This document shows positions 3,514 to 52,659 of a stretch of 64,000 bases of DNA, piece by piece. Where the stretch lies: the IMG/VR virus record IMGVR_UViG_3300028027_000001. One strand, given 5' to 3'. This stretch comes from a virus. The first letter of the stretch is position 1, and every line of letters begins with the position of its first letter. Made by a program: the position numbers and the translations under genes. Under the pieces are notes generated by a model. It saw nothing but the letters and a program-made list of their open reading frames with translations. It ran no database searches and was not told the DNA's origin.

Positions 3514-4491
3514 TTATGAATTAGGTAATATGTGGTTTTTGAACTTTCTTAATAATAATCCACCTTGTTCATATGCTTCACGCTCAATTTCAAGTAACTT
3601 TTCATCTTCATGTATATTAGTTGTATTGATGGTTGGTAGGCGATCCTCTAAATTTTGCATATGATGAATATATTCATGACATATTGTAGCTAATACATCA
3701 CGGGGGGAACGGTTAAGAGAATATACGGTTATAGTCAATGTTGAAGGATTATAGTAACCAGTTTTACCAAAGAAATCACTAGCATTTTTAGTGTCGTTAT
3801 CTATTAACTCAACGCGTGGTAATGGTTGCACGTTCATCCCTTCACTAATCATATATTCGTTTAATGATTGAATATAACCTAACAATAATTGACGTGAATC
3901 AGTAGGTTGTTCTATTTCGGTTACTGTGGTTTGTGGGTTAAGTATATTTACTACTTGTTGTTTTTCTTCATCACTCAATATATCTGGGAGGTAGTGTTTA
4001 AATGCTTCATAGTTACCTGATAGTAATGCTTGGCGTGCTTTTGTTCCACTAACATCTGGGTCTCCAGAAAGGACAATGGTTTTAAAATTAGTGTATTTTT
4101 TACCTAGTGAATCAAATCGTTTAATATCGTTTTGGTCTGCTTCTGATCGCATCCCAACTACAGGGAAATAGAAATTTTGTGGATTTTCACCAATTATTTT
4201 ATGTATGTCTATAATAGGTGAATTAGCTTCTGCTATACGAATAGAAACATTTGAAGATAAATGATTTTTATATATTTCCCATATCTCCAAACTTTGATCA
4301 GCAGTTATACCGTCACGTACTTTATGTCCTATTAATACAATTACTTCGTCTATTTCTCCACGTTTTGCTACCTCATTAACTAAATAAAAATGTCCGGATG
4401 TGGGTGGTTTATATCCGCCAGGAATTAATGCTATGGATTTTCCTGGGGTTTCAAGGAATGGTTGGATTAGAGATTCAACTAATTGATTCAT
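3514..4491 (-). CDS. cytidylyltransferase-like (HxGH) nucleotidyltransferase fused to a zincin (HExxH) domain
   Basis: PGGYKPPTSGH and SGTKAR motifs; C-terminal HEYIHHMQ...EREAY. Confidence 0.75.
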   Translation of the reverse strand: MNQLVESLIQPFLETPGKSIALIPGGYKPPTSGHFYLVNEVAKRGEIDEVIVLIGHKVRDGITADQSLEIWEIYKNHLSSNVSIRIAEANSPIIDIHKIIGENPQNFYFPVVGMRSEADQNDIKRFDSLGKKYTNFKTIVLSGDPDVSGTKARQALLSGNYEAFKHYLPDILSDEEKQQVVNILNPQTTVTEIEQPTDSRQLLLGYIQSLNEYMISEGMNVQPLPRVELIDNDTKNASDFFGKTGYYNPSTLTITVYSLNRSPRDVLATICHEYIHHMQNLEDRLPTINTTNIHEDEKLLEIEREAYEQGGLLLRKFKNHILPNS

Positions 4492-26929: not shown

Positions 26930-27382
26930 TTATAAGTTAGATCCAACACTAATTATAGTATTAATAGCATCATCCACCCCCATTTTAAAAAATTCTCTTT
27001 TCTTTTTAATTCGGTATTCGGATAAACATTGATGAACCATATATTCTAACTTTTTTCCATCAACACACCTAAAAGCAAAATCAACATCAAATTCATCAGG
27101 AACCCCTGTTGATTTTGATAATATTAATGCTCTATCATATGGGTTAAGGGATGTGTATCCTATTTTTACAATTCCGGGCATGTATTTATTGGTTAAAACA
27201 TACACAAATTGTTCTCCATTTTGACCAGCAAATTCTCTCTTAGGTTTATTAGTATAATATGTGACTTTAGACCACCCATCTTCATCATCAATTGATGTGA
27301 AGTAATGGGGATCCATATGTGAATACCCATCTTCTTCTATGGATATAAATTTTTTTGATTGTTCTAATGTAATATATTTCAT
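26930..27382 (-). CDS. T5orf172/MUG113 family GIY-YIG-like protein
   Basis: VYVLTN..MPGIVKIGYT...R...LS.STGVP..F...E..VH..L...R....REFF. Confidence 0.85.
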   Translation of the reverse strand: MKYITLEQSKKFISIEEDGYSHMDPHYFTSIDDEDGWSKVTYYTNKPKREFAGQNGEQFVYVLTNKYMPGIVKIGYTSLNPYDRALILSKSTGVPDEFDVDFAFRCVDGKKLEYMVHQCLSEYRIKKKREFFKMGVDDAINTIISVGSNL

Positions 27383-32410: not shown

Positions 32411-33080
32411 GAGACCAAGAAAGCCTATATGAAACATATAAGCGAATAATTTAAAGCAGGCGATTATCATTTACACTGAATACAATGCCTTTTAATATTT
32501 GAATCTATTATTTAATTTATCAATCATTACTACTTGGTCCCTCATCTCCCTCCTCCCTGGCGTCTCCATAAGTCATAGGTTACCTTATGGCCTCCCTGTT
32601 GCGGCGATTGGTTTCGGTCGTTCGTTAATGTTTGGAGTAAATTAATTTTAATTCCCCGTTCGTCTCGTTTGACTATAATCGTGGATAGGGCCTCGGTTTA
32701 ATATTCAACTGTTCCTGCCTGTCTCCGCTACTTCCGGTATGTTTTTCAATGGGGCAATTAATTAAATTACTGGGATAGTGGAGAGAATGGATTAACCGAT
32801 TGTCGCACCTTAAGCCGTAGCATCTGTTCTGTTTAATTAATTCAAAGAAAAACGCACCTTGGTGCGATTATACATATGTGTGTTTTCCGTCTTTTATACG
32901 TCTTCATGAAAACCTTTTCACCCTCCCTTACGGGAGGGATCAAAGGGAAATTAACGGTTATGAAGCGTTGTTTCGTTATTAATCACCATAATCGGTGATA
33001 ATCATATCGTCTGCGTTGATCGGCGCTTATATTTCGCTTAAATCAACACTGTGATGTAGCCATAATTGCGATAAATGGCA
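32411..33080. ncRNA. candidate large structured ncRNA (about 670 nt)
   Basis: ORF-free, raised GC, many nested inverted repeats; directly downstream of two tRNA-like elements. Confidence 0.55.
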
Positions 33081-33086
33081 ATTCTG

Positions 33087-33210
33087 TTGTTAGGACAGGA
33101 TTCGAACCTGCTTAAATCCCCATGACAGGGACGATGGTGTGATTACACTCACTCATCTTAGGGATGTGAACCCATTCCATCTGTGTTTTACCTATTACAC
33201 CCACCTAACA
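33087..33210 (-). ncRNA. tRNA-like element A (124 nt; 39-nt expanded anticodon loop, long variable arm)
   Basis: TGTTAGG/CCTAACA acceptor, GTG/CAC D-stem with GG loop, GATGG/CCATC stem, GCAGG-TTCGAAT-CCTGT T-arm, A73. Confidence 0.75.
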
Positions 33211-33220
33211 TTTTATTTTG

Positions 33221-33321
33221 TTATTAGGACAGGATTCGAACCTGCAATCCGATGGGCACCTCTATTGGCTTTAAGTGCTCCGAACACACCACCGCAGTTA
33301 TCCAATTACGTTCACCTAACA
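33221..33321 (-). ncRNA. tRNA-like element B (101 nt; non-canonical middle)
   Basis: TGTTAGG/CCTAATA acceptor, TAATTGGATAA D-loop, GCAGG-TTCGAAT-CCTGT T-arm, A73. Confidence 0.7.
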
Positions 33322-33403
33322 TTTTATTTTTAAAGTAAAACCATTTCGTTTTACTTGCTTTTATACCTGGAATATACGAAAGTTCCGTCGGTAATTTGCG
33401 TCC

Positions 33404-33830: not shown

Positions 33831-34045
33831 TTACTCAGGTGTCCTCCAAGTAATTATTTACTTACTTTACTTACTCTCAGGTAATTACCTCAGGTACATT
33901 TTACTTACTCCTTACTTACTCTTATGTGAGAAATGCGGTGAGGGACGTGGAAAATATATATTTTTGGAAGTGGGGGGAAGGGCGGGGAGGCGCGGGAGAT
34001 GTGGGTTAGACCCCAACTCCCCTCTGCCCCCCTATGTCCTACACA
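33831..34045. repeat. iteron-like TTACTTACT/CTCAGGT repeats followed by a G-tract/C-tract palindromic block; candidate origin or terminus
   Basis: ttacttact x4 and ctcaggt x3 in 33831-33923; GGGGGGAAGGGCGGGGAGGCGCGGG then CCCCAACTCCCCTCTGCCCCCC. Confidence 0.55.
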
Positions 34046-34096
34046 GTTGGCAAATATTATACACATTCACTTACCCCCAAGTACATTTACTTTCCT

Positions 34097-42508: not shown

Positions 42509-43222
42509 TTAATTTTGTCCTTTTGTTTTTTCAGCATACTCCCATCTATAACCATGGGAAGTTTTCTGTTTTCCTTTCAATGCGCTAGTGATACCCCCAT
42601 TAGTGCCTTTATAACCTAAAGCATTTTCTGCCTGAGTTATTGAATCAAAACGTTGTATTATTTCTCCTTCTAAACTTAATTGATAAACTGGTTTGTTTTT
42701 CTTTTCAAAGAATGATGGTTTATGTTTTTTACCTCTTAATAAGTGGGACCTGTTAGGATATGTTCTAGATTTTCGGGTGGCTATGGTTTTATCTATGACT
42801 TCTTGGGGGACTTTATATCCTAATCTAGCTTTTGATTGGCGTTCCCTAGTTTCAATAGATCTCTTTTTCCCTTTATTAGATTGAGATCTTCTTTTATTTT
42901 GATCCTCAGTCCATACTATTCCCTTATTACCTCCTTCTCCCCCTTCACTAATGTTAACTAACATACCATTGGGATCTACATTTTTTCTCCCAAATTGTTT
43001 GATATAATTAATCTCCATTTCACATGCTTGTGATTTAGTTAAATTTTCATGAACTAATTTTACTGTGGGATCACCATGTTTTTCCACGTATCTTTTCCAT
43101 ATTGGGTTCCTCTCCCCAAAATTATAAGGTCTAGATTTAACTGATCCTATTCCTACATAAAATACTTCTTGTGTTGTAGGGTTTAGGTGAAAATAAACAA
43201 AATATATATTATCTTTTGACAT
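42509..43222 (-). CDS. GIY-YIG homing endonuclease with NUMOD3/NUMOD1 DNA-binding repeats
   Basis: VYFH...FYVGIG, E...I..FGR...LVN.SEGGEG, KGKKRS.ETRER.S, KPVYQ.SLEG.II..FDS...A; start revised to MSKDNIY. Confidence 0.85.
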   Translation of the reverse strand: MSKDNIYFVYFHLNPTTQEVFYVGIGSVKSRPYNFGERNPIWKRYVEKHGDPTVKLVHENLTKSQACEMEINYIKQFGRKNVDPNGMLVNISEGGEGGNKGIVWTEDQNKRRSQSNKGKKRSIETRERQSKARLGYKVPQEVIDKTIATRKSRTYPNRSHLLRGKKHKPSFFEKKNKPVYQLSLEGEIIQRFDSITQAENALGYKGTNGGITSALKGKQKTSHGYRWEYAEKTKGQN

Positions 43223-43444
43223 CGTTTTTGTATGGGAATATACAAAACGATATGTTAACATCCTAGTATTCTTTCTAAAAACCTTTACTTCTTTAATTAT
43301 TTTTATTATGAATCTCTTTTAGTTAATTTAACTCTAATTACTTCTCCTTGACCGACAATGATGTTGCCTATTTTAACTGACTTATCTTTAAGATAAAATG
43401 ATGTTACCTTACCGGCTCTATTCTTAACATATATGTAAGGCATA

Positions 43445-49108: not shown

Positions 49109-49311
49109 GACTTCATATCTAATTTTAATCTGTTGATAGGCAATAAACTGATTTGTTTATATTCTCTGCTATTTGGATATGGTTGATAAGTAGCTGATGG
49201 GTGGATACAATAGGCCTCATTGTTATTGGTTGGGTTTAATCCTATAAAAATAAAAGTTAATCCACCCGCATATTTAACTCTATCACCATTCTTAAAATCT
49301 ATATTTTCCAT
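49105..49311 (-). CDS. hypothetical protein
   Basis: Coupled ORF. Confidence 0.6.
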   Translation of the reverse strand: MENIDFKNGDRVKYAGGLTFIFIGLNPTNNNEAYCIHPSATYQPYPNSREYKQISLLPINRLKLDMKS

Positions 49312-49317
49312 AACTTT

Positions 49318-49602
49318 TTATTTTATTGCATTAGATAATTGTGATTGAGCTTCTAGATAAACATCATTGAAATGTTTTTCTGTAGTTAAGCATGTTTCAA
49401 AAATATAATTTTCTACTTGGAAATTCTCCTCTATGGATATAGTTAATTGATTCCATTCGTGTTTAATGGTGATTTTGTTATGTTCTGTAATTTTAACCAA
49501 TTCATCTAGACCCATTTCATCCTGAAAATATAAATACACGGGTAAATCTAAATTTGTTTCAATTTCTTCTACTTTTCTTTTAATTACTTTTAGTTTACTC
49601 AT
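49318..49602 (-). CDS. early hypothetical protein
   Basis: Promoter plus leader. Confidence 0.7.
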   Translation of the reverse strand: MSKLKVIKRKVEEIETNLDLPVYLYFQDEMGLDELVKITEHNKITIKHEWNQLTISIEENFQVENYIFETCLTTEKHFNDVYLEAQSQLSNAIK

Positions 49603-49801
49603 AACCTTATTTTTGATTGAATATACGAAAAAATATTTGGTAAGACAAATGAAGGCGACAATTTCTTGCCGCCTTACTTACTAGGTCACCGATGCCTCCT
49701 AGCGTGATGGGTTATTTAATGTCATTTTGTCTAATTTCACTTTACGTGACATAGTCGCAGGGTCCCATTTAACTGACAAAACCCGATTCGGTATTAAGGT
49801 G

Positions 49802-49909
49802 TAGTTAGGACAGGATTCGAACCTGTGCAGGGTGTCATCCCCCGGAGCATCTAAAGTTTTGACGTACTTATTATTGAGCTCCTGCATTACCACTTTCTGC
49901 CATCTAACT
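49802..49909 (-). ncRNA. tRNA-like element C (108 nt; 29-nt anticodon loop, long variable arm)
   Basis: AGTTAGA/CCTAACT acceptor, GCA/TGC D-stem, GGAGC/GCTCC stem, GGGG/CCCT variable arm, ACAGG-TTCGAAT-CCTGT T-arm, A73. Confidence 0.75.
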
Positions 49910-50053
49910 ATTCCATAAATTGGTTCCGTAAGCATTTTTTGATATTGAAATTCTTATTACTACAAAAGGCAGTTGAATAACAATTTGCCCATCATAACAA
50001 ATACCTAAAGTTATTTGCCATTTTCTATAAATGCTTAATCTATATTCTCCCAT
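49904..50053 (-). CDS. 49-aa hypothetical protein inside the ncRNA cluster
   Basis: Manual translation MGEYRLSIYRKWQITLGICYDGQIVIQLPFVVIRISISKNAYGTNLWNS; A-rich leader. Confidence 0.5.
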   Translation of the reverse strand: MGEYRLSIYRKWQITLGICYDGQIVIQLPFVVIRISISKNAYGTNLWNS

Positions 50054-50074
50054 TATATTTATTTTAATTTTTAG

Positions 50075-50140
50075 TAGTTAGGATAGGAATTGAACCTACT
50101 GCCGATTTTTCACGAGGGCCACCATTGCCACTACCTAACT
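50075..50140 (-). ncRNA. tRNA-like element D (66 nt; no recognisable anticodon arm)
   Basis: AGTTAGG/CCTAACT acceptor, GGC/GCC D-like stem, GTAGG-TTCAATT-CCTAT T-arm, A73. Confidence 0.65.
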
Positions 50141-50259
50141 TTAAACCAAATGCTTTAGTCGCCCGGAATCCATCTGGGGCTTATTACTAGATAACTTGTA
50201 GCTTACTTACCATGGTTCATACCGTTGCTACTAGGAAACCCAACATTGCATTTTATTAG

Positions 50260-50370
50260 TGGTGAGAACAGGACTCGAACCTATATGATAGCTGCAAGCA
50301 GTCTCCACGCTGGATACATTTTAGTGCACCATAACTATCTTTTCGCGTCTACCAATTCCGCCATCTCACC
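50260..50370 (-). ncRNA. tRNA-like element E (111 nt; tRNA-Leu-type D arm, replaced middle)
   Basis: GGTGAGA/TCTCACC acceptor, TGGCGGAATTGGTAGACGCG D arm, ATAGG-TTCGAGT-CCTGT T-arm, A73. Confidence 0.75.
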
Positions 50371-50538
50371 TTAATTACAGTAGGTTGTAAGGTACTTGTT
50401 AGTTAGACTTTCTCTTACCCCTTTATTAACCTGTATCAAAAATTTTTATTTTGGACCTAACTGGTGGAAACTTGAAAAAACCACCTCACGTATAGTACAC
50501 TCACCTAAGAACTACCAAAGACTTATGCCTAACTGTCG

Positions 50539-50617
50539 TAGTCAGATTAGGACTCGAACCTAAATTAAGATGCCTATTGGACTCATACTTCTCCTATTCC
50601 AATTAGAGGATCTGACT
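50539..50617 (-). ncRNA. tRNA-like element F (79 nt; irregular anticodon arm)
   Basis: AGTCAGA/TCTGACT acceptor, CTC/GAG D-stem with GG, TTAGG-TTCGAGT-CCTAA T-arm, A73. Confidence 0.7.
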
Positions 50618-50782
50618 ATAAAAAACAGGAAGCACCTGTTCAGATCTTGGACACTAGTATACTTATCCTCCTGTTTCGCCACCCATGCCTTTGGGTCAAT
50701 CTGTTTTGTAGTTTTATGTTTTCACATCTACATGACTTTAACTACAAAAGTACGCGTAGTAATTTAATTCCCCACGCGGAAT

Positions 50783-50859
50783 GAGGTTGAGAGCCTCTGT
50801 GTTGTAATATATCAATTTAACATTCTTAATATTTATTCACTTCTCACATGAACAACACA
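50783..50859 (-). ncRNA. kissing-loop RNA motif copy 1
   Basis: TGTGTTGT/ACAACACA stem, TGAGAA loop, terminal GAGG-CTCTCAA-CCTC hairpin. Confidence 0.6.
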
Positions 50860-50946
50860 TATAACCAGTCGCTCGCTTTAGAGTCAGCCACCCACTAATG
50901 GATCGCACAGGAATCTAATTTCTCACACCTGTACTGATTATTATTT

Positions 50947-51040
50947 GAGGTTGAGAACCACTGTGTTGTGAGTAAGATTCTTACTTTTCAGTATGTTTCT
51001 CTCCTTTACCTTCTTACGCCTTTCTCAAGGGAACAACACA
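50947..51040 (-). ncRNA. kissing-loop RNA motif copy 2
   Basis: TGTGTTGT/ACAACACA stem, TTGAGAA loop, terminal GTGG-TTCTCAA-CCTC hairpin. Confidence 0.6.
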
Positions 51041-51067
51041 TTTCTTTTTATACCTAAATATACGAAT

Positions 51068-51295
51068 TTATTCTGTAATCTCCAAATTTTCTTCTTCAAT
51101 AATCTCAGCTTCTTGAACTGTTTCTACAAATAAATAATGTGTTTCATTTCGTAAAACATGATCAACAAATGGTAAATAGTCTCTCCATGCCTTAATTTTG
51201 TCGGCATCTAATTGACCGTCTTTATTAATAAAGAACGTGTGAGCAATGCGTCTTCTTACAAGATAACATCGATCATTGTGTTTGTATAGTTCCAT
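51068..51295 (-). CDS. hypothetical protein
   Basis: ORF in operon. Confidence 0.7.
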   Translation of the reverse strand: MELYKHNDRCYLVRRRIAHTFFINKDGQLDADKIKAWRDYLPFVDHVLRNETHYLFVETVQEAEIIEEENLEITE

Positions 51296-51297
51296 GT

Positions 51298-51555
51298 TTA
51301 AATCACGTTAATTTTAGTTACTTTATACTGTCTCATGTATCGATCAACAAACGACTTTCCAACACCTAAATCAATAACTTCATATTCGTTAGGAATCAGT
51401 GGTTTACGTTTTGATGAATCTAATACCTCATCTACAGTTACGTTTTGAAACGTAGATATAAATTGTCTTTTACCTTTTTTTAATACAACAACGGTTGTGA
51501 TTGGTTCTTCTGATGGGCGACCTTTACCCGATGTCTGTTGAGTGTATGGATTCAT
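51298..51555 (-). CDS. hypothetical protein
   Basis: Promoter plus leader; GKGRP motif. Confidence 0.7.
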   Translation of the reverse strand: MNPYTQQTSGKGRPSEEPITTVVVLKKGKRQFISTFQNVTVDEVLDSSKRKPLIPNEYEVIDLGVGKSFVDRYMRQYKVTKINVI

Positions 51556-51612: not shown

Positions 51613-52659
51613 CTAGTCTTTGATAATCATCTTTTTAGAGTCGATTACTTTATTGTCAACTATTAATCGGTAATAGTAGATTCCTGCAGGTAAATGTTCT
51701 TTTTCAATTTCAATTTTGTTTTTTTCAGGGTCTAATTCATATTTTAAATTAAAATTAGCATAAGTAGAATACTTAATGTCAATGTATGATTTTGAATGTT
51801 TAGGGACAATATATTCAATTACTGTTGAGTATTTGAATGGGTTTGGGTAATTTTGACCTAGTTTAGGTACAACTGTATCCTGTTTGTCTAGTATGGATTG
51901 GTTAGGTTTTAAATAATCAACTAAAATGGATTTTGATTGAACACACCCATTTTTATCTGTTACATTTACCAAATAAGTTCCCGCTTTTATTGTTTTTAGG
52001 TTTTGTGTTTTAGCACCATTACTCCAAGAATATGAGTATGGTGGTGTACCATAATTAACACTTATTGATATTGAACCATTACTAGCTGTTTTAGTGTTCG
52101 GTTTAATAACAGTTTCATCAATTGTCATTGGTGTTAAAGTATCTATAACATAATGAAAACCAACAGTTTCCATAGTACATCCCTTAGAATCAACTACTCT
52201 AACCCTATATGCACCCGCTCCCACATTTCCAGTATTTGAAATGAATGGTTTATTGTTCCTATCAAAATAATAGAATGTATATGGAAACAACCCACCACTA
52301 ACAAAATTTTCCATATGAGATAAACCACCAGGACAAACTATTGGGGTAAATGTTGTTGTTAATCTAAGCTTAAGTGGTTGTGGAATTGAGTCAGAAACTG
52401 TTTTAACACATCCCTTGGTGTCTGTTACCTTAACCGTATATTTACCCGCCTTAGATTGCAGATTCTGCGCATTATACCCGTTAGACCACTCATATTTGTA
52501 TGGGCCTGTTCCACCATCTACTTTAGTTAGTAATATTTTCCCATCTCCACCAAAACAATTTGCTGATACTGGTTTGGCTGTTACAATCATTTTTGAACAA
52601 TCTTGAGTATAGGAAATGAAGGGGGTTAGAAAAATAGCAATTAAAGTAGATAGTTTCAT
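51613..52659 (-). CDS. secreted SprB-repeat protein with T9SS type A C-terminal sorting domain
   Basis: Sec signal peptide; three repeats C.G...G.I....GGT.PY.Y.WSNG.......AG.Y.V.VTD.KGC; C-terminal LGQNYPNPF...LPAGIYYYRL......KKMII. Confidence 0.9.
   Translation of the reverse strand: MKLSTLIAIFLTPFISYTQDCSKMIVTAKPVSANCFGGDGKILLTKVDGGTGPYKYEWSNGYNAQNLQSKAGKYTVKVTDTKGCVKTVSDSIPQPLKLRLTTTFTPIVCPGGLSHMENFVSGGLFPYTFYYFDRNNKPFISNTGNVGAGAYRVRVVDSKGCTMETVGFHYVIDTLTPMTIDETVIKPNTKTASNGSISISVNYGTPPYSYSWSNGAKTQNLKTIKAGTYLVNVTDKNGCVQSKSILVDYLKPNQSILDKQDTVVPKLGQNYPNPFKYSTVIEYIVPKHSKSYIDIKYSTYANFNLKYELDPEKNKIEIEKEHLPAGIYYYRLIVDNKVIDSKKMIIKD

Follow-up and report, generated by a model that had tools for sequence, protein, structure and literature searches.

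In a 64-kb stretch of viral DNA (64,000 nucleotides of IMG/VR virus record IMGVR_UViG_3300028027_000001, hereafter the window) we found a cassette of about 1.4 kb on the minus strand (49652-51066; all cassette coordinates are given on this strand) that starts with a promoter motif and ends with a terminator hairpin. It contains two kissing-loop (KL) RNAs, four further conserved RNA modules, four tRNA-like elements without a decoding anticodon arm (shells F, E, D and C), one orphan unit and the gene of a 49-aa protein. The comparison of 175 phage loci, designated here by L-numbers, supported the view that the cassette is a non-coding, single-promoter set of conserved structured RNAs. Its anatomy, its conservation, its presence or absence as a block in related phages and its likeness to annotated RNAs of phages T4 and T5 were evident from this comparison. 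We consider it probable, with moderate confidence, that the region is an accessory promoter-to-terminator cassette like those of phage tRNA regions, yielding small stable RNAs rather than proteins, in which the shells would be matured by the host tRNA pathway and would also be products themselves.

The cassette is opened by a phage promoter-like motif, TTCGTATATT-tagg-TATAAAAA (51045-51066), with the predicted start of transcription a few nt before the first KL RNA. The 10-mer TTCGTATATT at 51057-51066 was one of 32 copies in the window, all of them on the minus strand, when 0.49 were expected by chance. The consensus of these sites was AGGAC-N~18-TTCGTATATT-N4-TATAAAT, mostly located 14-45 nt 5' of a start codon, and the start codons that follow it often had AAGGTT just before them. 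The 32 sites spanned 29.3-57.6 kb, none being present in the structural-gene half (1-29 kb). The 10-mer had no copy inside the cluster; the next one (49620-49629) serves the downstream gene, and the only credible open reading frame (ORF) between both promoter copies was that of the 49-aa protein. A 10-bp terminator-like hairpin detected by a terminator scan at 49652-49675 closes the cassette, a layout suggesting that the whole region may be transcribed as one unit. Nearly all the elements listed in an earlier note on this DNA were present at the coordinates given there, together far beyond chance: the promoter near 51057, the final terminator-like hairpin, the two KL RNAs, the four tRNA-like elements lacking a decoding anticodon arm (by pattern search, ARAGORN and Rfam) and the 49-aa ORF, which proved to be a real gene with homologs at the protein level. 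The distances of 2-7 nt that the same note had given between the units and the shells also agreed with the sequence for the units U3, U4 and U5.

The shells were recovered with a pattern search that asked for a D arm bearing GG and for a T arm stacked directly on a 7-bp acceptor stem. Shell F (50539-50617, 79 nt) has a 7-bp acceptor stem, a D arm with GG, the T loop GGTTCGAGTCC and an anticodon-region loop of about 11 nt, and shell E (50260-50370, 111 nt) has a Leu-type D arm, GGCGGAAUUGGUAGACGC, with about 58 nt in place of the anticodon and variable arms. Shell D (50075-50140, 66 nt) shows a collapsed anticodon arm and the T loop GGTTCAATTCC, and shell C (49802-49909, 108 nt) resembles class II tRNAs: its variable arm is long, and a 5-bp anticodon stem closes a loop of 29 nt. 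The D arm was of the full Leu type in E and a variant of it in C, D and F. In place of the anticodon arm, E has 53 nt, C the 29-nt loop and D a stub, and a usable arm of 5 bp and 7 nt was found in none of the four. Consistent with this, ARAGORN called no tRNA anywhere in the window, shells included. The Rfam tRNA family (RF00005) matched E with 36.2 bits and C with 33.8 bits, both above the 29-bit gathering threshold; RF00005 was the only family reported at the shells, two lower-scoring matches of the same clan not being displayed and no separate mascRNA search being made. The T-loop motif GGTTCRANTCC occurred six times in the window, when 0.09 copies were expected, with four copies in the cassette and two at 33.1-33.2 kb that belong to two more shells, A and B. 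In all six, U8, A14, the GG of the D loop and the T-loop consensus TTCRANY were retained. The shells keep the parts that RNase P and RNase Z read, namely the elbow formed by the D and T arms and the stack of the 7-bp acceptor stem on the 5-bp T stem. On inspection, the idea that the inserts are introns was discarded, because they are far too short for group I and an anticodon arm would still be missing after their removal.

Shells B (33221-33321) and A (33087-33210) form a second cluster on the minus strand, 10 nt apart, with a promoter motif at 33371-33380. In both, the variable arm is long and an anticodon-like stem of 5 bp closes a large loop; they passed the pattern search only when the D-arm test was omitted. 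Shell A was nearly identical in one IMG/VR contig (L020).

Shells were not restricted to this virus. The T arm and acceptor common to A, B and C were present in 25 IMG/VR contigs, where most copies were not called as tRNAs, and 95 unique shells were identified in 63 of the 175 loci. ARAGORN-called tRNAs were present as well in 43 of these 63 loci, the shell family occupying a same-strand tRNA-cluster location (43/63), and the window has no canonical tRNA. The dominant scaffold, AGUCAGG or AGUUAGG followed by UGGCGGAAUUGGUAGACGC, the insert and UACAGGUUCGAAUCCUGUCCUGACUA-C, was distinct from the canonical tRNA-Leu of the same phages, and was near-invariant across phages whose thymidylate synthases are only 44-60% identical. 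The discriminator base was A in 66 of 83 shells. The inserts, of 16-140 nt, were unrelated overall, with some conserved subfamilies that show compensatory changes (e.g. L109/L115 versus L114). After the discriminator, the 3' trailer continued with C and then with A-rich sequence (C-A-A or C-U-A); because the canonical tRNAs of related phages have the same trailer, this points to a common 3' maturation route for both. A distance of 61-200 nt to the next tRNA-like gene was found for 34 of 75 shells versus 46 of 240 canonical tRNAs. The T arm/acceptor pattern of shell E was absent from IMG/VR, and in the metagenome set it matched only unrelated tRNAs and two other shells. When cultured phages were queried with a shell, the match was limited to the generic Leu-type D arm.

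The two KL RNAs belong to a second family. KL1 (50944-51040) is closed by the 8-bp stem UGUGUUGU/ACAACACA and contains an inner hairpin with the loop UUGAGAA, a variable core of 45 nt and a 3' hairpin with the loop UUCUCAA. In KL2 (50780-50859) the stem of the inner hairpin is a variant, UUCA/UGAA. The general design was GUGUUGUUCCCUUGAGAAAGGAA, a variable core of 30-100 nt and ACAACACAGAGGNUCUCAACCUCAA. The 3' signature alone matched 41 IMG/VR contigs, with the 5' half present in nearly all of them. In an alignment of 32 sequences, 94% of the cells were paired in the proposed fold versus 41-51% with slid partners, and covariation was seen at a single pair, 13-23 of the inner hairpin, which changed from C-G to A-U. 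A covariance model detected no further divergent members beyond L169 and L170. The family was absent from Rfam and from cultured phages, where KL1 gave chance hits only, and in 185,579 prokaryote genomes the pattern gave two chance hits, both within coding sequence and without the 5' half. The core of KL1 was identical in L137 and replaced in L160, the core of the latter recurring in L118. KL RNAs sit in tRNA arrays, and 8 of 39 had a tRNA or shell within 3 nt downstream, a count from which the detectors miss some cases. They were often paired or in tandem in arrays of up to 26 canonical tRNA genes (L111 4384-4598; L117 12288-12551; L115; L003), and other modules recurred beside them in these arrays, e.g. 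GGAGCGAGACGGGUACUCC before and ACUAUUAGUGAACUUCGGUACCCAUACCGCUGACGA after.

The remaining units were of several kinds. U1 (50862-50940), a closed structured unit, was 100% identical in L160 and had homologs in L117, L169 and L170, each time with a KL RNA following it; one pair of its closing stem varied between U-A, U.G and C-G, and its folding z-score (-2.68) was the only outlier among the units. The hairpin module that follows KL2 (50707-50779) recurred in L160 (100% identity over 66 nt), L133 (89%) and L143 (72%), with part of it in L168, and its stem CGCGUGG/CUACGCG showed compensatory changes with respect to L133. U2 (50618-50706) consists of a closing stem, CAGAUUG/CAAUCUG, a conserved hairpin, a variable core and a terminator-like hairpin (50623-50641); its scaffold was kept and its core swapped in L160, L166, L168, L133, L125 and L128, and the unit also recurred in L143. 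U4 (50148-50253), a closed unit between E and D, was 95% identical in L160 and 88% in L166/L167, was placed after a shell in the three loci that have it, and its closing stem AAAUGC/GCAUUU changed to AAAUAC/GUAUUU in L166, a G-C pair becoming A-U; a sequence pattern taken from U4 was absent from IMG/VR. U5 (49679-49801) starts directly after a shell in all five loci (the window, L166/L167, L109 and L171/L172). Its long-range stem, with the variants AUGGG/CCCAU, GUGGG/CCCAC and GAGAG/CUCUC, was compensatory in three of five pairs, and in L171/L172 a sequence read as tRNA-Leu comes next after it. U3 (50377-50536) is the orphan, without homologs among the compared loci and missing together with F from L160/L161. 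Because its 5' end is AGUUAGG with a D-arm-like UAAG/CUUA stem, and its 3' end is GUCUAACUA, U3 may be a decayed shell that has lost its T arm.

Relatives of the locus were found through homologs of the upstream 75-aa gene, and were of three kinds. L160 and L161 had the order KL1'-U1-KL2'-hairpins-U2'-E-U4, with F and U3 absent. In L162-L165 (ENA ERZ19570169 and ERZ19571493; Logan ERR11527207 and ERR11494171) the segment 51085-49675 was absent and the flanks were kept, the upstream gene being followed by the 49652-49675 hairpin and then by the next promoter. L166-L168 had the promoter, a different small ORF, other RNAs, one KL RNA, U2', a 73-nt shell, U4, a shell of about 140 nt, U5 and the hairpin; the 73-nt shell takes the place of E in L166, where a single shell also stands in for D, the 49-aa ORF and C. 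The cassette is therefore accessory, present or absent among close relatives, and these natural plus and minus variants (the window versus L162-L165) offer a direct handle on the function of the RNAs. With respect to L160, the nearest relative, identity was 92% in the flanking genes, 100% in U1 and in the hairpin module, 98% in E and 95% in U4. The cores of KL1, KL2 and U2 had been replaced (22-51% identity) within scaffolds that were kept. The breakpoints were located at shell 5' ends, within T arms or within shared acceptor strands, so that the constant ends of the shells, the KL RNAs and U2 appear to act as recombination joints through which modules and cores may be exchanged between phages. 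Other routes to relatives gave no cluster: where more distant homologs of the downstream gene were present (94 aa; 63-66% aa identity) the genes were tightly packed, none of the 80 loci reached through the thymidylate synthase (60% identity or less) had a syntenic cluster, and the Hoc-like/SprB protein led to no relatives.

The 49-aa protein is encoded at 49904-50053 and had homologs with 77-83% aa identity, without matching any Pfam or PHROG family. Its homolog was also flanked by shells in L174, and was found in a different context, with no array, in L173. In the window, the last sense codon and the TAG stop (49904-49909) overlap the first six acceptor bases of shell C; the homologous ORF of L174 stops 9 nt before the shell. 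Upstream of the homolog in L173, a GC-richer phage, the region 3540-3800 contained G-run/C-run repeats and repeated CCTCGTATATAGGCAT-like motifs.

The explanation that we favour takes the shells to be non-decoding tRNA mimics of the design seen in T5 RNA1/RNA2 and T4 species 1 RNA. Work on model substrates has shown that bacterial RNase P depends on the acceptor/T-stem stack and the elbow and can do without the anticodon arm. Because the shells keep this stack and the elbow, the host tRNA pathway would most probably mature them: RNase P would cut at the 5' end, and either RNase Z (BN) or exonucleases, together with the CCA-adding enzyme, would form the 3' end; the identity of these enzymes and the stability of the RNAs are inferred. 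Each shell, with its variable insert, would then persist as an RNA product of its own, and shell maturation would cut the transcript and free U3, U4, the 49-aa mRNA and U5. The stretch of about 430 nt formed by KL1, U1, KL2, the hairpins and U2 has no shell within it, so that punctuation cannot separate its parts; it could be a composite RNA ending at the U2 hairpin, or be cut by other RNases. The earlier note had described the region as an operon punctuated by tRNA-like elements, a description that applies to the part in which the shells alternate with U3, U4 and U5 and fails from KL1 through U2. Its further proposal, that the shells are cut marks for RNase P and a 3' nuclease, held in part: the recognition parts are kept, the trailers are tRNA-like, U4 and U5 come after shells, and T4 and T5 offer precedents, so that cutting of the transcript by these enzymes is plausible; against it stand the first 430 nt or so without a shell, the terminator-like hairpin that divides the region, and the conservation of inserts. 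Because the scaffold is near-invariant, some insert subfamilies are conserved and tandem shells occur with nothing between them, the shells look like products as well, and not like bare cut marks. The same note had made its case depend on structural conservation of the intervening units, and this was observed: U1, U2, U4, U5 and the hairpin module recur, with compensatory changes in U4, U5 and the hairpin module, U3 being the exception. The comparison with related phages that it recommended showed modules of the cassette at this locus in L160/L161 and L166-L168, with rearrangements. The Rfam comparison was negative, since in 49300-51400 neither the KL RNAs nor U1-U5 matched any known family and only chance-level hits (E 4.6-8.3) were obtained.

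Several observations weigh against the explanation that we favour. Most units folded no better than shuffled sequences (z-scores of +0.9 for U3, +1.15 for U4 and +0.64 for U5), and the z-scores cannot carry the case because U1 alone stands out. U3 and F are without homologs; D, at 26.3 bits, falls below the 29-bit Rfam threshold, and F gave no Rfam tRNA hit at E<=10. The link to tRNA arrays comes from other phages, ARAGORN having found no canonical tRNA in the window. The loop-loop core of the KL RNAs, UGAGA/UCUCA, is invariant and hence without covariation, for which reason the kissing contact stays a prediction. The hairpin of U2 at 50623-50641 is followed by six U just before F, a run that the relatives do not have, and it could stop most transcripts before they reach F. 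Finally, a cut by RNase P at the 5' end of shell C would strip the stop codon from the 49-aa ORF, leaving a non-stop mRNA.

Two alternatives also assign the shells a role, and we regard both as unlikely. If punctuation were their only function, the shells would be cut marks that release the units and are then degraded. Such a role would suit the fact that the conserved parts are just those read by RNase P and RNase Z, the anticodon region varying freely, as well as the constant position of U4 and U5 after a shell and the 61-200-nt spacing of shells, which fits interleaved units. It does not account for the five modules between 51040 and 50618 that have no shell between them, nor for shells A and B of the same phage, which have nothing in the 10 nt that separate them. 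Compensatory changes within insert subfamilies (L109/L115 versus L114) and the 98% conservation of E, insert included, would not be expected of mere cut marks; real tRNAs able to do the cutting are already present in many loci, and the T5 analogues are annotated as stable RNAs themselves. The other alternative, to which we likewise give little weight, holds that variable RNAs are displayed on constant scaffolds for host/phage conflict, as decoys or sponges of tRNA-directed defence enzymes or as guides, with processing being only the way in which they are produced. The cassette might then be part of a phage RNA display system, doubtful as this is, with at least three constant frames (shell, KL and U2) whose cores are traded by recombination and whose RNAs act on host factors. 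Mimics of the acceptor end and the elbow could soak up tRNA-directed defence toxins, or leucyl-tRNA synthetase might charge the shells, which is conceivable because this enzyme needs no anticodon; if such a display were real, the stable RNAs of tRNA arrays would be an RNA-based counter-defence arsenal. In its favour, three unrelated scaffolds share constant ends and a replaced core, the cores being 22-51% identical where the flanks are about 92% identical, the same cores appear in otherwise different phages (that of KL1 in L137, that of L160 in L118), and the cassette is accessory among close relatives. No target is known, however, and no partner protein gene was found among the 25 larger ORFs of the window. 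The idea of antisense targets was tried and rejected, the complementarity of inserts and cores to the window's own transcripts being no greater than that of shuffled versions, and recombination at shared ends can replace cores without any selection for diversity.

That the cassette is a decaying tRNA array, with pseudogenes for shells and meaningless spacers for units, seems very improbable to us, although no shell can decode, U3 resembles a broken shell, the folding z-scores are weak and L162-L165 do without the cassette. The modules are at least as well conserved as the adjacent genes, U4, U5 and the hairpin module show compensatory changes, the bases of tertiary contacts are kept in all six shells, and decay would hardly leave the shell scaffold near-invariant across phages with such divergent thymidylate synthases. 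Least probable of all, and scarcely credible, is that the structures are cis-regulatory leaders or trailers of the 49-aa gene or its neighbours. This gene does lie inside the array, and in L166-L168 a small ORF comes right after the promoter and before the RNAs; the modules nevertheless occur in many phages that have none of these genes, a gene of 150 nt hardly calls for about 1.2 kb of structure, and the homolog in L173 has no array. On balance, maturation of the shells by the host tRNA pathway into stable products, which frees the units next to them, would agree best with the data.

That phage tRNA operons can contain stable RNAs, tRNA-like and other, is already known from T4 and T5, precedents that are some 40 years old. 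In the T5 record (AY543070.1), the annotation of RNA1 and RNA2 is 'tRNA-like stable RNA with unknown functions' and that of RNA3 is 'putative tRNA-like RNA'; RNAI, RNAIII, RNAIV, RNA2H and RNAX are listed there as stable RNAs too, and all of these RNAs are packed 0-4 nt from tRNAs with micro-ORFs interspersed. T5 RNA1 resembles the shells, and E best of all, in combining an insert of about 75 nt with a T arm, an acceptor stem and a Leu-type D arm (CGGAAUUGGUAGACG), and the T arm of T5 RNA2 (GCAGGUUCGAAUCCUGU) almost equals that of the shells. In contrast to the cassette, which lies in a 64-kb window with no real tRNA, the T5 array is dominated by real tRNAs; no sequence homology was found between T5 and the units or KL RNAs, the host of T5 is E. 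coli whereas that of the cassette phage is likely to belong to the Bacteroidota, and the T5 record has no annotated swapping of cores between relatives. At the end of its tRNA cluster, T4 encodes the small stable RNAs rnaC and rnaD (species 1 and 2 RNAs), which are separated from tRNA-Arg and from one another by 1-6 nt. As in the shells, the 3' part of rnaC is a T arm (CCGGGUUCGAAUCCCGG) with an acceptor-like strand after it; T4 has only two such RNAs, with other sequences and no known family of exchangeable inserts. RNase P, RNase BN/Z and the CCA-adding enzyme process the transcripts of the T4 tRNA cluster to maturity.

New features of the present cassette are a version without any real tRNA in the 64-kb window, at least five further conserved modules, among them the KL family with its 41 viral contigs and no Rfam entry, a micro-gene flanked by shells in two lineages (the window and L174), and the visible exchange of modules and cores between close relatives. 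Decades after their discovery, the stable RNAs of T4 and T5 still have no assigned function, and the same design now appears in uncultured aquatic phages.

Likenesses were also found in other systems, of which plant mitochondrial t-elements, mascRNA and the gammaherpesvirus tRNA-miRNA genes operate as the earlier note proposed but are unrelated to the cassette. The ends of mitochondrial RNAs punctuated by tRNAs, and those at t-elements, are made by RNase P and RNase Z, and the 49-aa mRNA of the cassette, flanked by shells, resembles such punctuation. In MALAT1/mascRNA and in the TMER of gammaherpesvirus 68, cellular RNase P and RNase Z use a non-decoding tRNA-like element to free a linked RNA; unlike the cassette, these systems are eukaryotic and have one tRNA-like element per transcript or a Pol III unit. 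The t-elements of plant mitochondria, the subject of Forner et al. 2007 (PMC1920247), are tRNA-like structures that define the ends of neighbouring RNAs. These elements differ from the shells in being organellar and in not being thought of as products, and the first third of the cassette has no such mark. Bacterial and phage Y RNAs of the YrlA type share with the shells a tRNA-like domain of D and T arms within a non-decoding RNA. The ends of YrlA RNA lie in the Ro-binding stem, not in an acceptor stem; no RF02553 hit was obtained at the cassette, and no TROVE/Ro60 domain was present among the 25 ORFs scanned, small ORFs being outside the scan. In engineered tRNA scaffolds, processing and stability come from the tRNA frame, in which an insert takes the place of the anticodon arm. 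Whereas these scaffolds are a laboratory design, the shells would be a natural, evolving family, and if the tRNA pathway matures them they would be a natural version of the same device.

All the long ORFs of the window are on the minus strand, and its GC content is about 31%. The baseplate protein was 45% identical to its counterpart in the Flavobacterium phage immuto, and the source is an uncultured myophage, probably with a host among the Bacteroidota. The window belongs to a metagenomic contig of 170.7 kb (ENA ERZ27245887 k141_1480767), parts of which were matched at 100% identity by two Logan contigs from SRR8439010. A gene for a SprB-repeat protein lies just upstream of the cassette (51613-52659) and gave a faint match to a type IX secretion tail domain. 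When the 25 larger ORFs were compared with Pfam or PHROGs, none was an RNA-repair, Ro60 (TROVE) or CCA-adding gene. Homing-endonuclease-like genes were located at 42509-43261 (I-HmuI/NUMOD-like domain) and 26930-27382 (T5orf172 domain). A blastn search with the whole cassette region against cultured phages gave zero matches. The KL and shell scaffold sequences were not found printed in the literature searched. Fremin et al. 2023 (PMC10690425) describe candidate phage RNAs by the thousands, with tRNA-like ones among them.

Two other non-coding features were observed in the window. Directly downstream of shell A, about 650 nt on the minus strand (32440-33086) contained no ORF, had GC-richer patches and gave no Rfam hit, making the region a candidate for a large non-coding RNA. 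It aligned in part to L020, with 32869-33086 lying within a block of 82% identity and 32646-32727 also at 82%, the rest not aligning. A near-perfect long G/C-rich hairpin was located at 33961-34046, with about 65% GC in a genome of 30% GC, and its only Rfam hits were spurious, microRNA-like ones.

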